Sequence record: MN022785.1 | Length of the DNA: 64,000 nucleotides | Strand: one strand, 5' to 3' | DNA from: Escherichia phage VEc20 | Shown here: positions 5,812 through 64,000 of the stretch, piece after piece | Numbering within the stretch: position 1 is the first letter of the stretch | Layout: every line of letters starts with the position of its first letter | The notes under the pieces: model-generated | Databases searched by the model: none | What the model saw: the letters and a program-made list of their open reading frames with translations, nothing else | What the model was told of the DNA's origin: nothing | Position numbers and translations under genes: made by a program

Positions 5812-7320
5812 ATGGATATTAAAGTACATTTTCACGACTTCAGTCATGTACGCATCGATTGTGAAGAGAGCACGTTCCACGAATTAAGAGATTTCTTTTC
5901 GTTTGAGGCCGATGGATATAGATTTAACCCTCGCTTCAGATATGGCAACTGGGATGGGCGAATCCGTCTTTTAGATTATAATCGTCTTCTTCCATTCGGC
6001 TTAGTCGGGCAAATTAAAAAGTTCTGCGATAACTTTGGCTATAAAGCCTGGATTGACCCACAGATTAACGAAAAAGAAGAATTATCAAGAAAAGATTTTG
6101 ATGAATGGCTTTCTAAATTAGAAATCTATTCAGGAAATAAAAGAATTGAACCGCATTGGTATCAAAAAGATGCAGTGTTCGAAGGATTAGTTAATCGTCG
6201 TAGAATTCTTAATCTTCCAACATCCGCTGGTAAATCGTTAATTCAAGCTTTGCTTGCGCGATATTATTTGGAAAATTATGAAGGTAAAATTCTTATCATT
6301 GTTCCAACAACTGCTCTAACAACTCAGATGGCTGATGACTTCGTTGACTATCGTTTATTCAGTCATGCAATGATAAAGAAAATTGGTGGCGGAGCATCAA
6401 AAGATGATAAATATAAAAATGATGCACCAGTCGTTGTTGGTACATGGCAAACTGTAGTAAAACAACCGAAAGAATGGTTCTCACAGTTTGGAATGATGAT
6501 GAATGATGAATGCCATCTTGCTACAGGAAAAAGTATTTCATCTATCATATCAGGTTTAAATAACTGCATGTTCAAATTTGGTCTATCTGGTTCATTACGT
6601 GATGGCAAAGCCAATATCATGCAGTATGTTGGAATGTTTGGTGAAATATTTAAGCCAGTAACGACTTCTAAGTTAATGGAAGATGGACAAGTAACTGAGC
6701 TAAAAATTAATAGTATTTTTCTTCGCTATCCCGATGAGTTCACTACTAAATTAAAGGGAAAAACTTATCAAGAAGAAATAAAAATTATTACGGGGCTTAG
6801 TAAAAGAAATAAATGGATCGCTAAATTGGCTATTAAGCTTGCACAAAAAGATGAAAACGCTTTTGTCATGTTTAAACATGTATCACATGGTAAAGCTATT
6901 TTCGATTTAATTAAAAATGAATACGATAAAGTTTATTACGTATCAGGGGAAGTTGATACCGAAACCCGCAATATAATGAAAACCTTAGCTGAAAATGGTA
7001 AAGGAATAATTATAGTAGCTAGTTATGGTGTATTTTCTACTGGTATTTCAGTTAAAAATCTGCATCACGTTGTTTTAGCGCACGGTGTTAAATCAAAAAT
7101 CATTGTATTACAAACAATCGGTCGTGTATTACGTAAGCATGGTTCTAAAACAATCGCAACAGTCTGGGACCTCATAGATGACTGTGGTGTCAAGCCAAAA
7201 TCTGCTAATACTAAAAAGAAATATGTTCACTTGAACTATCTTTTAAAACACGGCATTGATCGTATTCAGCGCTACGCAGATGAAAAATTTAATTACGTAA
7301 TGAAAACAGTTAATTTATAA
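5812..7320 (+). CDS. uvsW: UvsW DNA helicase
   Basis: 502-aa ORF with Walker A (PTSAGKS) and DECH box. Confidence 0.9.
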   Translation: MDIKVHFHDFSHVRIDCEESTFHELRDFFSFEADGYRFNPRFRYGNWDGRIRLLDYNRLLPFGLVGQIKKFCDNFGYKAWIDPQINEKEELSRKDFDEWLSKLEIYSGNKRIEPHWYQKDAVFEGLVNRRRILNLPTSAGKSLIQALLARYYLENYEGKILIIVPTTALTTQMADDFVDYRLFSHAMIKKIGGGASKDDKYKNDAPVVVGTWQTVVKQPKEWFSQFGMMMNDECHLATGKSISSIISGLNNCMFKFGLSGSLRDGKANIMQYVGMFGEIFKPVTTSKLMEDGQVTELKINSIFLRYPDEFTTKLKGKTYQEEIKIITGLSKRNKWIAKLAIKLAQKDENAFVMFKHVSHGKAIFDLIKNEYDKVYYVSGEVDTETRNIMKTLAENGKGIIIVASYGVFSTGISVKNLHHVVLAHGVKSKIIVLQTIGRVLRKHGSKTIATVWDLIDDCGVKPKSANTKKKYVHLNYLLKHGIDRIQRYADEKFNYVMKTVNL

Positions 7321-56233: not shown

Positions 56234-56513
56234 ATTGAATCACCTTCAGTTGACGTTTTAGTTCTTTTATCATTTCTTCATTCATCGCAATATAAAGATC
56301 GCGTAAAGCGGGTTTTAACATTCCATTTACTGGAGAACTAAATGGACATACATAATCTTTTCCTACGAGCTTTTTAGTGAATTCCATATTACAGAACTGA
56401 AATGCCGGTTCATTAGCATAAATTCCCCAATTGGTTGACATCATTTTATTGGCATATTCCAATGCTTGGATTTGATTAGTAATTCCATCAATTTGAAACT
56501 TTTTAATATTCAT
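56217..56513 (-). CDS. hypothetical protein
   Basis: 98-aa ORF. Confidence 0.45.
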   Translation of the reverse strand: MNIKKFQIDGITNQIQALEYANKMMSTNWGIYANEPAFQFCNMEFTKKLVGKDYVCPFSSPVNGMLKPALRDLYIAMNEEMIKELKRQLKVIQFGQGN

Positions 56514-56980
56514 TAGTAAAGGTCCTCGGAGTAAAGTTCTTTTTCACTACCACCACGTTCAATACGCACTTGTCCAGCGTAAGTTGCAATAATCATTGCT
56601 TCTTCACGTGTCCAGTAATTGCTATACTGGTCAATAAATCCTTGGTCTTCACCACAAACATGGTCTGATACAAGTTTATCACTTACCTGGTCAAGAACTT
56701 CAGCCATATCTTTAGAATAATGACGAGCACCAGGAATAACCAGAGTCCCACCATCTTTTAACTTAAAGCGGTTGGCTGCACACACAATTCGACGTTGATA
56801 TTTTTCATTATTGTTCCAATGAGCTACTTGCCAACAGATTTCAGGAACCTCTTCTAAAACATCCTCTTCCGTATATTCGGTGTAGTCGCCATAGGCCTGT
56901 AATTTAGCTGCTAGACTTTCTGGAGTTTCACGTAATAAAGCCAGGTCTAATAATTCAAGACGCTCTTTGAAGGTTTTCAT
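56513..56980 (-). CDS. hypothetical protein
   Basis: 155-aa ORF, 1-nt overlap. Confidence 0.5.
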
Positions 56981-57128
56981 TTGGTTTCCTCAACACTTTT
57001 AATTTTTATAGCTTGTTTAGAACTTTCAAAGCATTGACAATATACTCTTACCGCATCAAACTGGTTGGCCGCTTTAAGATGGACTACACCTTCGTCGTTA
57101 TAAAATTCTACGACAATTTTAAATGTTT

Positions 57129-57458
57129 TCATTTAAACCATCCTTTAATACGTTGCCATAAAGTTTTCTGTTGAGCTTTGTTAACACCAATTGAACGAAT
57201 AACTGGTTGAGATTCCTGAAATTCTTTATAATCAGCAAGGTAAATTTCGTAAGCTGCATCCGTAAATGAACTTATCGCTGCCATAAAATTATTGCGAATA
57301 CCTACTGAAGCATCTTTACTTTCACGAATAATCATGTATTTACCAGTCTTAATCTTTACGATAGTTCCAAGATAAGCTCCATGGTACCAGATGTCCCAAC
57401 CCTCTTGAGTAGGTTCTACACAACGACGAAGTTCATTGACAATTTCTAACTTGTTCAT
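57129..57458 (-). CDS. hypothetical protein
   Basis: 109-aa ORF just downstream of motA. Confidence 0.5.
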   Translation of the reverse strand: MNKLEIVNELRRCVEPTQEGWDIWYHGAYLGTIVKIKTGKYMIIRESKDASVGIRNNFMAAISSFTDAAYEIYLADYKEFQESQPVIRSIGVNKAQQKTLWQRIKGWFK

Positions 57459-57468
57459 TATTTATTCC

Positions 57469-58104
57469 TCACAGTTCAGATGCTACAGTGATTACAACTT
57501 CAATATTTTCTGCCGAGCGTTTAATGTCAAGATACACATTACCGTTTTTAGCGATTTTACATGACATTCCGATATCAGTAAATTTCTGAATATGATGTTC
57601 CATCATTTTGTATCCAAAAATTCGCATATTTCCATTATTGTTAATTTCAAAATTACGAATTCCGTGAGTGCGTTTTTCTAAAATGGCAAGATAATTACTA
57701 CGATAAGTTTCAACCTTTTTAAGAACAAATCCATTTTCATCTAAAAGTTTTAACATGAGGTCTTTATCTTCTTCCATATCAGAAGTAATCTCACGAGCTT
57801 TACGAGTTGCTCGTTTTTTCAGTAGTTCAGGAGCATTTTCCTGTGCATATAAAGTTGCCGCATTTGAAATAATATCCTGAGCTTCACCAGTAATGATTAA
57901 TCCATCACCAGATTTCTCCACCAGGCCTTTTTTAATCAATACCCCAATATTACTATTAACTACTGCGTTACCTAAATCTGGATGCACCTCACGAACTTCT
58001 GCGGCTGTAATGAAATCTTTCTTAGCAATGGTAATTAAAATCGCAGCAGTTTTTTCATTCAGAACATCGTTAGAAGCTTTGATGATGTAAGTTACTTTAG
58101 ACAT
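57469..58104 (-). CDS. motA: middle-transcription activator MotA
   Basis: 211-aa ORF MSKVTYIIKASNDVLNEKTAAILITIAKKDF... recognised as T4 MotA. Confidence 0.85.
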   Translation of the reverse strand: MSKVTYIIKASNDVLNEKTAAILITIAKKDFITAAEVREVHPDLGNAVVNSNIGVLIKKGLVEKSGDGLIITGEAQDIISNAATLYAQENAPELLKKRATRKAREITSDMEEDKDLMLKLLDENGFVLKKVETYRSNYLAILEKRTHGIRNFEINNNGNMRIFGYKMMEHHIQKFTDIGMSCKIAKNGNVYLDIKRSAENIEVVITVASEL

Positions 58105-58141
58105 TTTAATCTCCGTTTCAGTTCATTTATTTGATAGGTCT

Positions 58142-58169
58142 ATAGTATCATGTTTAAAGCAGAAGTAAA
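58142..58169 (-). promoter_or_regulatory. early promoter (TTTACT-N16-TACTAT) for motA
   Basis: Contains the family-conserved GATAGGTCTATAGTATCA segment. Confidence 0.5.
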
Positions 58170-58209
58170 CACTTTTTTGCACTCTTTTTCAAGAGCTCTA
58201 ATAAAGTAC

Positions 58210-58437
58210 TTACTTAATGTTCAGATTACGAACTTCGATTTCGTCTTCATGGGCAAAATCAAACTGTTTGAATTCTGTGTCACCTTTAAATTTAAAAATC
58301 ATTGTGAAGAAAGTCAGAACACCAGGTTTTTCTTCACGAACTCCACAGATATCATATTCAATACCATCTACAACCAGTTTGTTAGCAGTCAGAGCATTTT
58401 TAGCTTTAACGATTTCGTTTTCGATTTTAAATTTCAT
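58210..58437 (-). CDS. hypothetical protein
   Basis: 75-aa ORF driven by the early promoter at 58487-58515. Confidence 0.5.
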   Translation of the reverse strand: MKFKIENEIVKAKNALTANKLVVDGIEYDICGVREEKPGVLTFFTMIFKFKGDTEFKQFDFAHEDEIEVRNLNIK

Positions 58438-58486
58438 TTTTTGTATCTCCGGGTTGTTTGTTTCAGTTCATTTATTTGATAGTTGT

Positions 58487-58515
58487 ATAGTACCACAGTA
58501 TGCTTTGGTTGTAAA
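58487..58515 (-). promoter_or_regulatory. early promoter (TTTACA-N17-TACTAT) with UP region
   Basis: Cassette 58478-58567 shares the -10 and UP/-35 flanks with 40930-41017. Confidence 0.55.
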
Positions 58516-58539
58516 CCGTTTTGTGAAAAAATTTTTGAA

Positions 58540-58567
58540 ATAAAAAAGGGAGAGCCTCGGCTCTCCC
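58540..58567 (-). terminator. intrinsic terminator
   Basis: GGGAGAGCC-TC-GGCTCTCCC followed on the minus strand by TTTTTATTT. Confidence 0.6.
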
Positions 58568-58572
58568 TAAAA

Positions 58573-58722
58573 TTACTGCATGACTGTGATAACTGTCATG
58601 ATAACACGTTGAATTCCGAACGCAAGAAGACCTCCTGCTACGGCAGGAACAACACCTAAACCCGCCAGTAAAATGCCACCAGATACTAATGCAGCGCTTG
58701 TGATACCAATGAATGGACTCAT
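58573..58722 (-). CDS. small hydrophobic membrane protein (49 aa)
   Basis: Hand-translated MSPFIGITSAALVSGGILLAGLGVVPAVAGGLLAFGIQRVIMTVITVMQ; ATGA overlap with the gene 52 stop. Confidence 0.5.
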   Translation of the reverse strand: MSPFIGITSAALVSGGILLAGLGVVPAVAGGLLAFGIQRVIMTVITVMQ

Positions 58723-60047
58723 TTGATTTCCTCTAAATCTTTGGTGTATTCTGTAACTACATCAGTAGTTTTCCAATATTCGTTTTCTTCTTTTTTGGCT
58801 TTAGCTTCTTCAGCAAGTTTCTTTGCTTCGTCGGAAGTCATATGAAAAATGTTCATTCCAACTAGTTTATCAACATGAGAAGAATACATATCAATTTTAG
58901 AAAGTTCTTCGGTCAGTTCTTTGCGAGTTTTACCTTGTACAACAATTTCACCTGAAATTACTTTCTTAATGAAATGTGCCTTGGCAAAAGCTAAACGAAA
59001 TGCTGATTCAGTTTCTTTGATTTTGTTATCAATTCGTTTTTGGACATAAGTTTTACGAACTTCAACGAAGTCTTTGATTAAATCAACTACATTATCGTAA
59101 ACTTGCAGCTTTCCTTTCTCATTAATGACGGTAATATTCTGGGAACGACGCTCAATCAACCCGAAGTCTTTCATAATTTTTGCATGGCGTTCTTCTTCAT
59201 TATCGCTCAAAGAGTATTCTTTTCGGAATTTAACTTTGAATCCAAAACCATGCTCACCACAAGCATCATCCCATGTAATGAAGCCTTTATCTTCAAGCGG
59301 GTCTAAGATTTTACTCACATAAGTTTCACGATCATACTTATATGGAATCTCAGTGATATGCATTTGAGTTCGTGAAGTAAACTTATATGTTCCACGAATT
59401 TCATATTGCCCATCAATTTCAACGACTTCACCACGAAATTCTGGGAATTCTACCTTCGGTTTAGTTACTTTCTTTCCTTGAAGAGCTTGCAGTACAGCTT
59501 TCTTGACAGAAGAAACACTATGAGGAAGAATGTAAGTTGCATAACCAGTTGCAATACCGGAAACGCCATTAAGAAGAACAGTAGGAATAATAGGCAAATA
59601 GAAAGCAGGCGGAATGTGTTCTTTATCTTGATGTACTGGAGCATATTCAGTATCTTTATATACGTTATAGAAATTTTTACTTACACGAGCAAAAATATAA
59701 CGACTTGCTGCTACCTTTTGGACAGTACGAGAACCAAAGTTTCCTTGACCGTCTAACAGAGGAAAGTTATTATTCCAAGTGTTAGCCATCAAAGCACCTG
59801 CGTCTTGCGCAGAGTTTTCACCATGATGATATCCAAGGTCCGCTACACCGCCTGCGATAGAAGCGAGTTTGTGAAACTTATCTTTATTTCCTCGTGCCAA
59901 ATCAAGAGCTCGAGCAATAACAAATCGTTGAACTGGCTTAAATCCGTCAATCATATTTGGAATGGCACGATTTTCAACCGTGTACATAGCATAAGCCAAT
60001 GCTTCATTATCAATGATACTTTTTAAATCACGATTATTCAGTTGCAT
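58719..60047 (-). CDS. 52: DNA topoisomerase II medium subunit gp52
   Basis: 442-aa ORF, T4 gp52 length; GyrA-like segments. Confidence 0.9.
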   Translation of the reverse strand: MQLNNRDLKSIIDNEALAYAMYTVENRAIPNMIDGFKPVQRFVIARALDLARGNKDKFHKLASIAGGVADLGYHHGENSAQDAGALMANTWNNNFPLLDGQGNFGSRTVQKVAASRYIFARVSKNFYNVYKDTEYAPVHQDKEHIPPAFYLPIIPTVLLNGVSGIATGYATYILPHSVSSVKKAVLQALQGKKVTKPKVEFPEFRGEVVEIDGQYEIRGTYKFTSRTQMHITEIPYKYDRETYVSKILDPLEDKGFITWDDACGEHGFGFKVKFRKEYSLSDNEEERHAKIMKDFGLIERRSQNITVINEKGKLQVYDNVVDLIKDFVEVRKTYVQKRIDNKIKETESAFRLAFAKAHFIKKVISGEIVVQGKTRKELTEELSKIDMYSSHVDKLVGMNIFHMTSDEAKKLAEEAKAKKEENEYWKTTDVVTEYTKDLEEIK

Positions 60048-60051
60048 AAAT

Positions 60052-60192
60052 TTACCATACTAGTGAATGTAGTGCCATAATAACATCAGAAATGAAAAGC
60101 ACGACTTGAATTAATCCGAACATTATTCCGTAATATAATGCTATCAATAAAATAGCAAGGGCTAATGAATAGCCCAAGATTTTCTTAATCAT
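60052..60192 (-). CDS. small hydrophobic membrane protein (46 aa)
   Basis: Hand-translated MIKKILGYSLALAILLIALYYGIMFGLIQVVLFISDVIMALHSLVW. Confidence 0.4.
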   Translation of the reverse strand: MIKKILGYSLALAILLIALYYGIMFGLIQVVLFISDVIMALHSLVW

Positions 60193-60343
60193 TAGTAGAT
60201 AACAACACAAATGTTAAATATGCACACATACCCTGAGCTAAAGCTTGCGAAAACACACTGCTGGCATCAATACAGATAGTTAAAACACATGCTACTATCC
60301 AACAAATAAATGAAATAACTCCTAATAATTTTGCGATATTCAT
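60185..60343 (-). CDS. small hydrophobic membrane protein (52 aa)
   Basis: Hand-translated MNIAKLLGVISFICWIVACVLTICIDASSVFSQALAQGMCAYLTFVLLSTND. Confidence 0.4.
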   Translation of the reverse strand: MNIAKLLGVISFICWIVACVLTICIDASSVFSQALAQGMCAYLTFVLLSTND

Positions 60344-60350
60344 ATTTTCC

Positions 60351-60431
60351 TCACTGGCGTCCGAAGACGCCTTTAGTTTTAAGATTATTACGATAGAACT
60401 GCATCACGTGTTCGTTGTGGAAATTACTCAT
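60351..60431 (-). CDS. stp: Stp peptide (26 aa)
   Basis: Hand-translated [26 protein letters not shown], matching T4 Stp as I recall it; TAATG overlap with ndd. Confidence 0.7.
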
Positions 60432-60889
60432 TAATATGCCTGCAAAACGAATTTAAAATTATCAGCCAACATACGGTTCATTTCTTCAAGTGTTTGATAC
60501 TCAGAATGATGATTACGAGTAAACGCTAAAGCTAACTGTCCTTTTCCAAATCCCGTCGTCAGAGGTTTCATCTTAGAAGCAGGCAGATAAAATACTGCGT
60601 ATGGAACATTGTTATTTGCAATAGTACGTGCAAGCTGAGACCGACGTTGACGAATATGACTTAGAACTGCACTGAATCCTTGCTTAGAACGCTGATTACC
60701 TACATAAAATCGTGCAGACACGCATGGATTACTAAATGGACGACCATCTAATTTACTCGCTAAAAAGTAAAATCCAGGTTTAGATAAAAAGTCTTTATGC
60801 GGAGTTCCCAAAAACCATTCACCGTTCTTGATTGTACCAATAACGGTAGCGCCTGCGTTGTTCAGATCAGTAACAGTCATGTATTTCAT
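60431..60889 (-). CDS. ndd: nucleoid disruption protein Ndd
   Basis: 152 aa from ATG 60889 ([18 protein letters not shown]...) with RBS AGGAAA. Confidence 0.8.
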
Positions 60890-60947
60890 ATTAATTTCCT
60901 CTAAATTATTTTCTACTCCAAGGCCGCATGAATACGCGGCCATTAAA

Positions 60948-61163
60948 TTAATCGTCGCAGTCGACGCTCAATTCCCAAAACTCTTCTACAGTATAAGTTT
61001 CAGTATCATTTTCAATACAGAAACGTTCATTACTGTTATTTGCTAAAGTAGCATTAACTGTCGGTTTCTCGCTAGTGCTCTTAAGAGGTGAAATACGAAT
61101 TAACTGATCACCGTTATCTAAACAGAAAATTTCACCAACTTTTACATCTTTAAAACTTTTCAT
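60948..61163 (-). CDS. hypothetical protein
   Basis: 71-aa ORF. Confidence 0.45.
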
Positions 61164-61278
61164 AATTCACCTCAAGGAGTATAAAATCCAAACGCAGTTG
61201 TTGACCATCCCATCCAATATGGAAAATTTGCACCAATGTAAAACATAAGAATATAAAACCAACCGCTCAGCAAATTCA

Positions 61279-61497
61279 TCATTTTACACCATTCCAAATT
61301 GTTTCAACCACAGATTTTAAACCATTTTGATGAATATCCATTCCGACTACTGCCATCAAATAGATTCCAACTACAACTGAACCTAAGGCAAAAATCAACA
61401 TGAAAATGAATAAAGCCGGAAAAATATTATCGAAAAACCATTCAATAAATGTAAAAACACTGCGTTTACGCTTCATATTTTCCTCACATAAATCCAA
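61279..61497 (-). CDS. small membrane protein
   Basis: 72-aa ORF with a long hydrophobic stretch. Confidence 0.4.
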   Translation of the reverse strand: MDLCEENMKRKRSVFTFIEWFFDNIFPALFIFMLIFALGSVVVGIYLMAVVGMDIHQNGLKSVVETIWNGVK

Positions 61498-61597
61498 AGT
61501 AAGCGTTTAATACATCAATCATTAAAACGATTGGGAATATACTCAAAACTACTAGTATTATAACTACATTCCATATAGCTTTAACAATCTTTTTCAT
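61484..61597 (-). CDS. small membrane protein (37 aa)
   Basis: From ATG 61597 with RBS GGAGG (MKKIVKAIWNVVIILVVLSIFPIVLM...). Confidence 0.4.
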   Translation of the reverse strand: MKKIVKAIWNVVIILVVLSIFPIVLMIDVLNAYFGFM

Positions 61598-61625
61598 TTT
61601 GTGTTCCTCCGTAGTTGATAGGGTA

Positions 61626-61654
61626 ATAGTACCACGGAGGAACAGTCTTGTAAA
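61626..61654 (-). promoter_or_regulatory. early promoter (TTTACA-N17-TACTAT)
   Basis: GATAGGGTAATAGTACCA family member. Confidence 0.5.
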
Positions 61655-61839
61655 CAACTTTTTAAAAATATTCGTAATAAATGTGAATACCAACTACTAC
61701 CGCTGAAACCTGTGCAACCCACCACGCACAAGCAATAAGTACAGAATTCAAAATTTTCATAATAACCTCATTACAAAAGTAAATGTTAAACAAATTAATG
61801 GAATACTAATTAACCAAACAAAACACCACCATAATGAAC

Positions 61840-62103
61840 TCATAGTTCAATCTCAGCGATTTTCATTTCATTATTGTTAATAGCATTTTTAAGACTATCC
61901 GAAAGAATTACATTCCAGTGGTCATTCATATGACCATTAACTAAGCGTGTAATTTCTTCGGGAGTTGAAAAATAAGGCGTATCAGACTCCCAATGCGATA
62001 ATCCTAAGCGAGTATAAATCATGCCTTCATCATCGCTAGAATATTCAACTGACACAAACTCATCAGTTATTTTATGTTTAGCGTAATAAAATTTAAATTT
62101 CAT
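61840..62103 (-). CDS. hypothetical protein (87 aa)
   Basis: From ATG 62103 with RBS GGAG. Confidence 0.5.
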   Translation of the reverse strand: MKFKFYYAKHKITDEFVSVEYSSDDEGMIYTRLGLSHWESDTPYFSTPEEITRLVNGHMNDHWNVILSDSLKNAINNNEMKIAEIEL

Positions 62104-62137
62104 TTTACTCTCCAAATCCGTATCAGTTGATAGTTGT

Positions 62138-62166
62138 ATAGTACCACGGTCCTTGTGGTATGTAAA
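62138..62166 (-). promoter_or_regulatory. early promoter (TTTACA-N17-TACTAT)
   Basis: Third copy of the GATAGTTGTATAGTACCA cassette (62129-62190). Confidence 0.5.
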
Positions 62167-62183
62167 CCATTTTGTGAAATTTT

Positions 62184-62741
62184 TTAAATGGAAAGATACC
62201 ATCCGCTGTAGTTGCTTTTTCTTACAACCTTACGAAGGTCTTCTCTATCACCGATGAACTTCGGAGTGTATTGGATGACACCTGGATGAATTTCTTTAGT
62301 GTTGAATATAATTATACAGTCAGCGACTTGATGATTTAGAATGGGCCCTAGATTTATTCCAGAACCATATGGATACTCTCCGCTGCATCCTGTTGTCACC
62401 GAAATCCAACGTGAGTCAGTTTGATGTGTCTTAACTTCTACACGAAGCCCGCAGTATCTTGGATGCGCCAATACATCCCATGCATATGTGTACGGATCAT
62501 CGACATCTTCTTGACCTTTGTTAACATACCCGCTCAGCCAATCTGCTACAAAAAACTCTGCGTACACAGCGATACGGCATCTTTCGATAACTTCTGCCTT
62601 ATCCTGATTTGGGTTTTGTTTTAAAGAGTATCTTGCAGTATCAACAATTTTGACCTTCATTTCACTAGTCAAGTCACTGTTCGATAGGGTAAATGTCGGA
62701 ATCTGAAATAGTCTCTGTAACCCCGGATTCGTTTTCTGCAT
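62184..62741 (-). CDS. denB: endonuclease IV-like protein
   Basis: 185-aa ORF, T4 DenB length, between ndd and rIIB. Confidence 0.6.
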   Translation of the reverse strand: MQKTNPGLQRLFQIPTFTLSNSDLTSEMKVKIVDTARYSLKQNPNQDKAEVIERCRIAVYAEFFVADWLSGYVNKGQEDVDDPYTYAWDVLAHPRYCGLRVEVKTHQTDSRWISVTTGCSGEYPYGSGINLGPILNHQVADCIIIFNTKEIHPGVIQYTPKFIGDREDLRKVVRKSNYSGWYLSI

Positions 62742-62800
62742 TTAAACTTTCCTTTTATGTCTGAATCACTGGTATTCATATAATAAATCATAATTTCTCT

Positions 62801-62823
62801 TAAAACAAAAGGGCCGAAGCCCT
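62801..62823 (-). terminator. UUCG hairpin with U-run
   Basis: AGGGC-CGAA-GCCCT; minus-strand RNA hairpin followed by UUUUGUUUU; the same hairpin recurs at 63038. Confidence 0.45.
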
Positions 62824-62827
62824 TATT

Positions 62828-63022
62828 TTATTTGAATTGTGCAATTCTTTTCTCTAGACATTCAGCATAAGATTTCATTGAGATAAACTGCGAAAGTAAC
62901 AGTTCTTGCTCAACTGCATTAACTGTTAGAAACTTTGCGCTTTCTAAAAATTTGCTCAGTGCATTAATTTTGAGCATTAATTGATCGTATTCTTCTTTTA
63001 CTCGTGCTTGATAACCTAACAT
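62828..63022 (-). CDS. hypothetical protein
   Basis: 64-aa ORF flanked by two copies of the AAGGGCCGAAGCCCTTA hairpin. Confidence 0.45.
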   Translation of the reverse strand: MLGYQARVKEEYDQLMLKINALSKFLESAKFLTVNAVEQELLLSQFISMKSYAECLEKRIAQFK

Positions 63023-63037
63023 AATTTTCCTCAGTTA

Positions 63038-63051
63038 AGGGCCGAAGCCCT
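63038..63051. other. intergenic UUCG hairpin
   Basis: AGGGC-CGAA-GCCCT directly after the rIIB stop. Confidence 0.4.
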
Positions 63052-63989
63052 TATTTAAATTGTTCAGTAACGTCTTCAACTACTTCGTATTGGCAGGTAC
63101 GCATTTTAGCATCGTTGTAATCAATCGGAATTGATACTACATCACGCGGATGTACTTTAACTTTTACAACTCGGCTAGTTGAACTGCCAAAGTGACGAAT
63201 ATAAGATTTAGAACACACATGCAGACCGCGAGAACAAGTTTGTGTATCATCGTCATTCACACGAGTACGTGGCATTTTAACTACTTTACCAGGGCTGTTA
63301 TCAAAAGTATTTGAATGACAGTCAAAGTAATTGCTGCGAACTACTTTCCAAGCATAGAAGTAACCGTCTTCTGTAATTTCAATATCGTTTGCTACCAAGA
63401 AATCAAAGAGTCGAGATACCGCTTTTTGGCTTGGGTTTTCCAACAGATTTTCCAAGAACGGAAAATAGAATTCAAAGTTTTCGCCTTTTTCCATCGAGTC
63501 AAGAATACGATCAACCAAACCAGATCGCAATTCAATATTTTGATAGAACAAGCTTCCACCTTCAATTCGAACATCGCCGGAAATATATTTTTCAACAGCG
63601 CGACGAACATTAATTTTTTGTGCCGCTTCTTCCAACTTATCCGCTACAAGCAGATTAAGAATTTCCTGGAAGTTTGAATGAGTATTAGGAGTTGCGTTAT
63701 AAGTTACACCGTCAACAGTAATTGAAATGAATTTTTTAGATGCATTCCAAATAATGTCAGATTTAGCAACTGGAGCAATAACTGCATCGCTATTAACTTT
63801 AACTGTAATGTCACCGCTAATAGTAACTTTAGAGCGTTCTGCTTCTTCAGCATTTTTCAAAACACGACGGATTGTGTCAACCGATACACCTTGCCAATCA
63901 GCCAATTCCTGTTGGGTGTAATTACCACTTGAATACAGCTTAACAATTTCAGCTTGTTCGTTTTTGGTCAGGCATTTAATATTGTACAT
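63051..63989 (-). CDS. rIIB: rIIB protein
   Basis: 312-aa ORF, T4 rIIB length, at the end of the early array. Confidence 0.8.
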   Translation of the reverse strand: MYNIKCLTKNEQAEIVKLYSSGNYTQQELADWQGVSVDTIRRVLKNAEEAERSKVTISGDITVKVNSDAVIAPVAKSDIIWNASKKFISITVDGVTYNATPNTHSNFQEILNLLVADKLEEAAQKINVRRAVEKYISGDVRIEGGSLFYQNIELRSGLVDRILDSMEKGENFEFYFPFLENLLENPSQKAVSRLFDFLVANDIEITEDGYFYAWKVVRSNYFDCHSNTFDNSPGKVVKMPRTRVNDDDTQTCSRGLHVCSKSYIRHFGSSTSRVVKVKVHPRDVVSIPIDYNDAKMRTCQYEVVEDVTEQFK

Positions 63990-64000
63990 AATTTTCCTTA

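Follow-up and report, generated by a model that had tools for sequence, protein, structure and literature searches.

Hydrophobic mini-genes around gene 52, stp and ndd of Escherichia phage VEc20 and their counterparts in phage T4

Phage T4 (NC_000866, T4p263–T4p275) carries, around gene 52 and ndd, a set of very small genes, most of them for hydrophobic peptides, which were annotated there decades ago and also have entries in PHROGs and Pfam. The present analysis concerns the corresponding locus of Escherichia phage VEc20 (MN022785.1), within a stretch of 64,000 nucleotides (nt) that is referred to here as the window. An earlier note, made from the letters of the sequence, had pointed to a run of mini open reading frames (ORFs) for hydrophobic peptides between positions 58573 and 61840, around gene 52, stp and ndd. 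As the T4 annotation implies, these mini-ORFs carry no weight as a discovery; their interest lies elsewhere, since seven of the eight hydrophobic mini-genes have no assigned function despite purifying selection, and most are conserved across several T4-like genera.

Only one gene of the hydrophobic set, ac, has a phenotype of its own. Its knockout makes T4 resistant to acriflavine, plasmid-expressed Ac raises the acriflavine sensitivity of uninfected E. coli by ~3 logs and sensitises it to ampicillin as well, and the authors of this 2025 preprint proposed that Ac inserts in the membrane and blocks AcrAB-TolC (bioRxiv 10.1101/2025.06.30.662393; the proposal is repeated in PMC13250531). The genes from 52.1 to ndd.6 have been removed together in large T4 deletions. 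The sa-delta-9 deletion, of ~3.4 kb, takes away 52.1, ac, stp, ndd, ndd.1–6 and denB; the phage is viable, with 50% of wild-type phage, and the stimulation of phospholipid synthesis induced by T4, particularly that of phosphatidylglycerol, is abolished (PMC6071114). The GT7 deletion, of 3,254 bp, extends from 52.1 to rIIB and was rebuilt cleanly to give viable phage (PMC9712115). The whole 52.1–rIIB block is dispensable on laboratory hosts.

Identity and conservation of the mini-genes

Along its entire length, the region 56500–64000 shares 99.4% identity with Escherichia phage vB_EcoM_G4498, and about 300 other Tequatrovirus (T4-like) records are 95–99% identical to it, which places the window, by sequence, in a T4-like phage (Tequatrovirus). 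All genes of the region are on the minus strand, in the order motA, a 75-amino-acid (aa) ORF, motA.1, 52, 52.1, ac, stp, ndd, ndd.1, ndd.2, ndd.2a/3, ndd.4, ndd.5, ndd.6, an 87-aa ORF, denB, denB.1 and rIIB, an order that matches T4 except for the two additional ORFs of 87 and 75 aa. The mini-ORFs of the earlier note are all found on this strand at the coordinates it gave, three of them within 61484–61840, and two hydrophobic ORFs lie beyond those it listed, at 61172–61282 (36 aa) and 61279–61476 (65 aa). By gene order and profile matches (Table 1), the hydrophobic mini-genes correspond to the already known T4 early genes motA.1, 52.1, ac and ndd.2 to ndd.6. Each of the nine small ORFs matches a PHROG profile end to end (E 3e-17 to 7e-31), including ndd.2, ndd.4, ndd.5 and ndd.6 with full-length matches at E 3e-17 to 4e-26; the order from ndd.1 to denB is that of T4, ac lies between stp and 52.1 as T4 Ac does, and the Pfam scores of stp, 52.1 and the 65-aa ORF all exceed the curated thresholds. 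The term “unannotated” in the earlier note thus holds for an ORF track with a 60-aa cutoff only, since all the mini-ORFs have names in T4 and are annotated in close relatives. At least 80% of the 1.8-kb block is contained in 493 phage records. Annotation is patchy, several related records omitting 52.1, stp, ndd.2, ndd.5 or ndd.6. In some records motA.1 is named “topoisomerase” or “transcriptional regulator” and neighbours are labelled “naphthalene 1,2-dioxygenase”. Unverified predictions or transfer errors account for product labels such as “outer membrane protein”, “periplasmic protein”, “transcriptional regulator” and “topoisomerase”, and the T4 labels of the outer-membrane or periplasmic kind are predictions copied between records.

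The description of the peptides as nearly all hydrophobic, encoded with tight or overlapping spacing, is borne out. The grand average of hydropathy (GRAVY) is 1.25–1.80 for motA.1, 52.1, ac, ndd.4, ndd.5 and ndd.6, in which the hydrophobic stretches span nearly the whole peptide, stp being hydrophilic. Over the whole hydrophobic set the stretches are 15–45 residues long, and N-terminal Lys or Arg residues precede them in 52.1, ndd.4 and the ndd.2a/ndd.3 ORF; the last starts with MKRKRS, has a single central hydrophobic helix and ends in a conserved C-terminal GLKSVVExxWNG tail. Four gene pairs, namely 52/motA.1, ndd.2a3/ndd.2, orf87/ndd.6 and ndd.6/ndd.5, share 4-nt ATGA overlaps, so that ndd.6 is coupled to both of its neighbours; ac and 52.1 overlap by 8 nt, ndd and stp by 1 nt, and the other gaps measure 4–8 nt. 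A Shine-Dalgarno GAGG or GGAGG is found 5–8 nt upstream of most starts. Between ndd.1 and ndd, at 60925–60944, there is also a GC-rich stem-loop, GGCCGC-GTATTCAT-GCGGCC, without a T-run, which may be an mRNA-stabilising or processing structure and not a terminator.

Hydrophobic frames of this size might arise by chance in AT-rich DNA, where T-rich codons specify hydrophobic residues, and yield no product. A 59-aa hydrophobic ORF read in a different frame within gene 52, and several antisense ones, fit such an origin, as does the failure of T4 proteomics to detect the peptides (see below). However, the coding strand of 58560–61850 contains six ATG-initiated ORFs of 28–70 aa with GRAVY of at least 1.2, against a mean of 0.18 and a maximum of 2 in 300 dinucleotide-preserving shuffles of the same strand. 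The ORFs also take up the intergenic spaces of the coding strand and have Shine-Dalgarno or coupled starts, which together with the profile matches, the selection on their frames described next and the genetic phenotype of ac leaves the chance origin effectively refuted.

The frames were compared within the genus in 15–24 Tequatrovirus loci, for which annotated phage records and IMG/VR contigs were the source. Nearly every copy is intact, so the lack of frame conservation that would have spoken against the earlier note is not observed; among the few exceptions are the T4 ndd.2a/3 frameshift and, in ndd.2, ndd.4 and ndd.6, single variants with an indel or an altered start codon. Variable sites cluster at third codon positions, and the ratio of nonsynonymous to synonymous substitution rates (dN/dS, Nei-Gojobori) in the annotated frame is 0.02–0.20, ndd.4 excepted, whereas the other two frames of the same DNA give about 0.5–14. 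Because their reading frames are conserved across relatives, the mini-ORFs are, on comparative grounds, true protein-coding genes under purifying selection.

Most of the families are not confined to the genus. When small hydrophobic ORFs from 57 loci were grouped by single-linkage BLASTP clustering, seven of the eight hydrophobic families reached phages with 60–78% identity in the gene 52 product (gp52). Across genera dN/dS is of limited use, synonymous sites being saturated (proportion of synonymous differences, pS, 0.6–0.85), and the proportion of nonsynonymous differences (pN) stays under this level (for ndd.4, pN 0.28 vs pS 0.70). In T4-like phages of several genera, the interval between ndd and 52 always contains 1–5 hydrophobic mini-ORFs of 43–60 aa, and it appears to be a hotspot for the gain and loss of small membrane peptides. 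In the same interval, other T4-like genera (L008–L044) carry additional hydrophobic families without a counterpart in the window, of 57–60, 51–70 and 43–49 aa.

Table 1. Features of the mini-gene region in the window. dN/dS values are within-genus; the last two columns refer to the cross-genus families.
Feature	Position	Strand	Description	Profile match	dN/dS	Family loci	Lowest gp52 identity
75-aa ORF	58210–58437	-	Non-hydrophobic; between motA.1 terminator and motA; no T4 counterpart	phrog_10955
Intrinsic terminator	58547..58568	-	Strong, after motA.1; 9-bp stem with 6 GC pairs, T-run
motA.1	58573..58722	-	49 aa, hydrophobic, Gly/Ala-rich; GRAVY 1.61	phrog_3487 (positions 1–49/49, E=7e-31)	0.06	21	78%
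52	58719..60047	-	DNA topoisomerase II medium subunit, 442 aa; context gene		0.01
52.1	60052..60192	-	46-aa hydrophobic peptide from ATG; T4 52.1; ORF-list version 52 aa, TTG-extended, ending 60210	Pfam DUF7396 (78.3 bits vs cutoff 27, positions 1–46/46); phrog_3595 (E=8e-25)	0.15	44	61%
ac	60185..60343	-	Acridine sensitivity/resistance locus; 52-aa hydrophobic peptide	phrog_2501 (E=3.7e-25, positions 1–51); homologues carry PF26944	0.02	24	67%
stp	60351..60431	-	Activator of host PrrC anticodon nuclease; 26-aa hydrophilic landmark, outside the hydrophobic set; GRAVY -1.03	Pfam PF08133 (75.3 bits); phrog_6763	0.06
ndd	60431..60889	-	Nucleoid disruption protein, 152 aa from annotated ATG; context gene
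ndd.1	60948..61163	-	71-aa acidic soluble protein; GRAVY -0.54; context gene	phrog_2183
ndd.2	61172..61282	-	36 aa, aromatic-rich, uncharged; GRAVY 0.62	phrog_4135	0.12	23	61%
ndd.2a/ndd.3, fused ORF	61279..61476	-	65 aa; GRAVY 0.88	Pfam DUF7248 (68.5 bits vs cutoff 27); phrog_2401 (E=9e-30 over 1–65)	0.08	26	61%
ndd.4	61484..61597	-	37 aa, KK-start then hydrophobic helix; GGAGG 8 nt upstream	phrog_3098		40	60%
Early-type promoter	61626..61654	-	T4 type, TTTACA-17-TACTAT with upstream TG; before ndd.4 and the genes after it
ndd.5	61662..61760	-	32-aa hydrophobic peptide	phrog_5011	0.07	18	Tequatrovirus only, 98–100%
ndd.6	61757..61843	-	28-aa hydrophobic peptide	phrog_8851	0.20	29	67%; most distant member doubtful
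orf87	61840..62103	-	87-aa acidic protein; no T4 counterpart	phrog_2390 (E=4e-46)
Early-type promoter	62138..62166	-	T4 type, TTTACA-17-TACTAT with upstream TG; upstream of orf87, ndd.6 and ndd.5

Transcription and the positions flanking gene 52

The mini-genes lie in leftward polycistronic units behind predicted T4-type early promoters. One unit comprises orf87, its first gene, annotated as hypothetical in G4498, followed by ndd.6 and ndd.5; the terminator after motA.1, also annotated as such in G4498, closes the ndd-stp-ac-52.1-52-motA.1 transcription unit, and a third early promoter past this terminator serves the next unit. Each of the two ORFs that T4 lacks, of 87 and 75 aa, has its own T4-early-type promoter in front of it. 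In T4 itself, a dual-omics study assigns motA.1, 52.1, ac, stp and ndd.2–ndd.6 to the early class by their transcripts (PMC9697503, Table S2).

Both ends of gene 52 are occupied by hydrophobic mini-genes. Upstream, the gap between the 52.1 stop and the gene 52 start is 4 nt in the window, and 52.1 is found directly upstream of gene 52 in 43/44 loci, at 4 nt in 27/44 and within about 70 nt in 43/44; the C-terminal half of the peptide is nearly invariant across genera. Downstream, the stop codon of gene 52 and the ATG of a hydrophobic mini-ORF overlap in 39 of the 57 loci. This second slot is conserved while its sequence family is replaced: at least four families unrelated by BLAST occupy it, the motA.1 type with 49 aa and others with 34, 45 and 23 aa, and every one of them is strongly hydrophobic. 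Within 52.1, at 60159–60175 (codons 6–12), there is a hairpin, GGGCTA-TTCAT-TAGCCC, with a T-rich run, annotated as a terminator in G4498. Almost all variants of 52.1 retain the stem, and in some of them the paired changes T>C and T>G extend it to 7 bp; it may act as an attenuator or processing signal ahead of gene 52.

A T4 genome-wide CRISPRi-ART knockdown scored motA.1 as “Semi-Fit” and gene 52 as “Fit”, and its Fit and Semi-Fit lists include none of 52.1, ac, stp and ndd.2–6. The motA.1 signal may reflect an effect on gene 52, because the 3′ end of gene 52 contains the ribosome-binding site of motA.1.

Two explanations are specific to this arrangement. According to the first, 52.1 and motA.1 are tied to the T4 topoisomerase/replication complex as membrane tethers or modulators; if true, this would explain both the hydrophobic slot kept at the two ends of gene 52 despite sequence replacement and the knockdown score of motA.1, and we regard it as quite unlikely. 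According to the second, the two genes are mainly translated spacers that set gene 52 expression or mRNA stability, the peptide sequence being secondary. The constant position of 52.1 ahead of gene 52, the overlap of the gene 52 stop irrespective of family, the conserved hairpin in 52.1 and the Semi-Fit score of motA.1 in a screen that scored gene 52 as Fit would all suit such spacers. The amino-acid sequences are nevertheless under purifying selection (Table 1), the C-terminal half of 52.1 is kept across genera, and a pure spacer has no need of the strong hydrophobicity found in all families of the slot after gene 52, which makes the spacer explanation very unlikely.

Proposed role in the host inner membrane

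The explanation that we favour, and consider highly probable as a whole, is that these are T4-family early genes for accessory inner-membrane peptides; their identity and their nature as membrane peptides are graded from highly probable to nearly certain. Each product would be a peptide of 28–65 aa consisting essentially of one long hydrophobic helix, and within minutes of the start of infection it would insert into the inner membrane of the host. The peptides would then serve as accessory, host-specific modifiers of envelope functions and would not belong to the replication or assembly machinery. The predicted structures are in line with this picture. The AlphaFold2 (AF2) model of 52.1 is a single helix over residues 2–45, with a mean predicted local distance difference test (pLDDT) score of 96.8, and that of Ac is a helix over residues 3–50, with pLDDT 74, weakest at residues 26–45. 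A search of solved-structure sequences gave no meaningful matches for Ac, the 52.1 profile, motA.1 or the ndd.2a3 product. Lipoprotein signal peptides were considered in ndd.5 (LIAC) and Ac (IVAC) and rejected, the Cys lying too early in the former and not being conserved in divergent homologues of the latter.

Regarding Ac, the peptide would disable drug efflux, AcrAB-TolC being the proposed pump, so that acridines accumulate in the infected cell, and an efflux block is the most likely mechanism. The gene demonstrates that a 51–52-aa peptide of this operon can alter host drug handling. Of the roles suggested in the earlier note, inhibition of host transport finds support for ac only, through acridine sensitivity and the proposed AcrAB-TolC block; for superinfection exclusion and lysis timing no link was found. 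Two ac arrangements differ from that of T4: Shigella phage vB_SsoM_113 carries tandem ac paralogues (L048, 3204–3528, in gp52-plus orientation), one of T4 type and one of RB68 type, which share a central motif (D/E)xSSVFxQxxAQG, and phage RB68 has the RB68-type ac alone, in place of the T4 type. The Ac entry of phage T6 (P0007) has a frameshifted C-terminus, with 49 aa and divergence after Gly38-Met39, and in one metagenomic contig (P0003) stp and ac are called as a single 81-aa fusion; errors of sequencing or gene calling probably explain both, although the T6 case may be real.

The peptides other than Ac would be small proteins that bind or modulate proteins of the host inner membrane, or that modulate lipid synthesis. 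That they share this general mode with Ac is proposed tentatively, as a possibility that we hold somewhat short of probable. One or more of them could account for the phosphatidylglycerol stimulation lost in sa-delta-9, and a single peptide, from 52.1 or one of ndd.2–ndd.6, is a possible factor switching on host phosphatidylglycerol synthesis.

Several observations weigh against this explanation or limit it. The T4 proteome time course detected none of the motA.1, 52.1, ac, stp and ndd.2–ndd.6 proteins (Class_P = NA), and detected Ndd and Ndd.1 early (PMC9697503); non-detection is to be expected because tiny hydrophobic peptides have few tryptic sites. A literature search found no relevant ribosome-profiling or small-protein study of T4 and yielded only two passing mentions of the ndd.x genes, and the case for translation is drawn from evolutionary evidence, plus genetics for ac. 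The within-genus dN/dS of ndd.4 is 0.59, a value based on 7 variable sites only. The AcrAB-TolC mechanism of Ac is a preprint hypothesis, and Ac matched no PDB chain at E ≤ 10 when compared with solved-structure sequences. Membrane insertion and topology are predicted, and AF2 models of isolated peptides cannot separate one transmembrane helix from a hairpin. Finally, the sa-delta-9 phenotype is that of the deletion as a whole, which also takes ndd and denB.

A host-dependent function could also lie in defence, the mini-genes being counter-defence factors against membrane-bound host or prophage exclusion systems, or triggers of them. Genes of this kind are frequent in the neighbourhood, namely stp (EcoprrI/PrrC), rIIA/B (Rex) and arn (McrBC); the phage can do without the mini-genes on laboratory strains, and from genus to genus their families are replaced and duplicated, as an arms race would lead one to expect. 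PADLOC, however, returned for the mini-genes a single weak match, of ndd.4 to KwaA (E=0.0085), which is probably compositional. A defence role is judged unlikely; it overlaps the accessory membrane-peptide explanation and is compatible with it. Being small, the mini-genes could be deleted one by one and screened on host panels at little cost.

Comparison with T4 and other small proteins

The closest described system is T4 itself, in which the mini-genes have the same order, strand and spacing and share the neighbours motA, 52, stp, ndd, denB and rIIB with the window. Amino-acid identity of the mini-gene products is 92–100% (motA.1 98%, Ac 96%). The window differs in the presence of the two additional non-hydrophobic genes, in the start of ndd.4, which gives 37 aa where the T4 annotation has 42 aa, and in one additional Thr codon in ac, three codons before the stop. 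The same extra-Thr variant of Ac is carried by phage PP01, for which the acridine phenotype is known as it is for T4, and is reported to be functionally neutral there (bioRxiv 10.1101/2025.06.30.662393). The main difference in gene structure concerns ndd.2a and ndd.3, which form a single ORF in the window, as in most relatives. In the T4 reference one base is missing just after the start codon (ATGAA-CGT, against ATGAAGCGT in the window; 61279–61476 here, 5933–6129 in the T4 locus L003), and the 1-nt indel therefore splits the 65-aa ORF into “ndd.3” (26 aa, off-frame) and “ndd.2a” (40 aa). Because 16/17 Tequatrovirus loci keep the single 65-aa ORF, T4 ndd.3 is probably a frameshift artefact or a strain mutation and not a gene.

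The T4 functions in exclusion and lysis belong to imm, sp, rI, rIII and t, located elsewhere in the genome. The mini-genes resemble Imm, Sp and rI in being early, small and, by prediction, membrane-associated, and rIIB, a lysis-inhibition and Rex-exclusion gene, lies 2 kb away, so that a role of the mini-genes in superinfection exclusion or lysis timing would be conceivable. Yet no mini-gene peptide matched a holin or antiholin family in PHROG or Pfam, nor Imm or Sp by sequence or in the PHROG search, each matching only its own PHROG of unknown function, and their promoters and T4 transcripts are early. CRISPRi-ART scored imm, rI, rIII and t as fit or semi-fit, and among the mini-genes motA.1 only. 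The phenotypes known from deletions of the block concern acridine, nuclease and lipids and not lysis, and no exclusion or lysis phenotype has been reported for it (PMC6071114, PMC9712115). With these differences in sequence and genomic location, an exclusion or lysis role is highly improbable.

Among bacterial proteins, the small inner-membrane regulator AcrZ, of 49 aa, binds AcrB. Ac is similar to it in size, in its predicted single hydrophobic helix and in the proposed pump, AcrAB-TolC. The difference is that Ac would inhibit the pump and not tune it, its binding being a hypothesis. Neither Ac nor the 52.1 profile matched a PDB chain at E ≤ 10, in a set assumed to contain AcrZ chains.

Within the operon, the nearest precedent is Stp (PF08133), likewise a very small early T4 peptide. 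It differs in being hydrophilic and cytoplasmic, the other mini-gene peptides being hydrophobic. Its host target is proven, and peptides this small from this operon can therefore be taken as functional.

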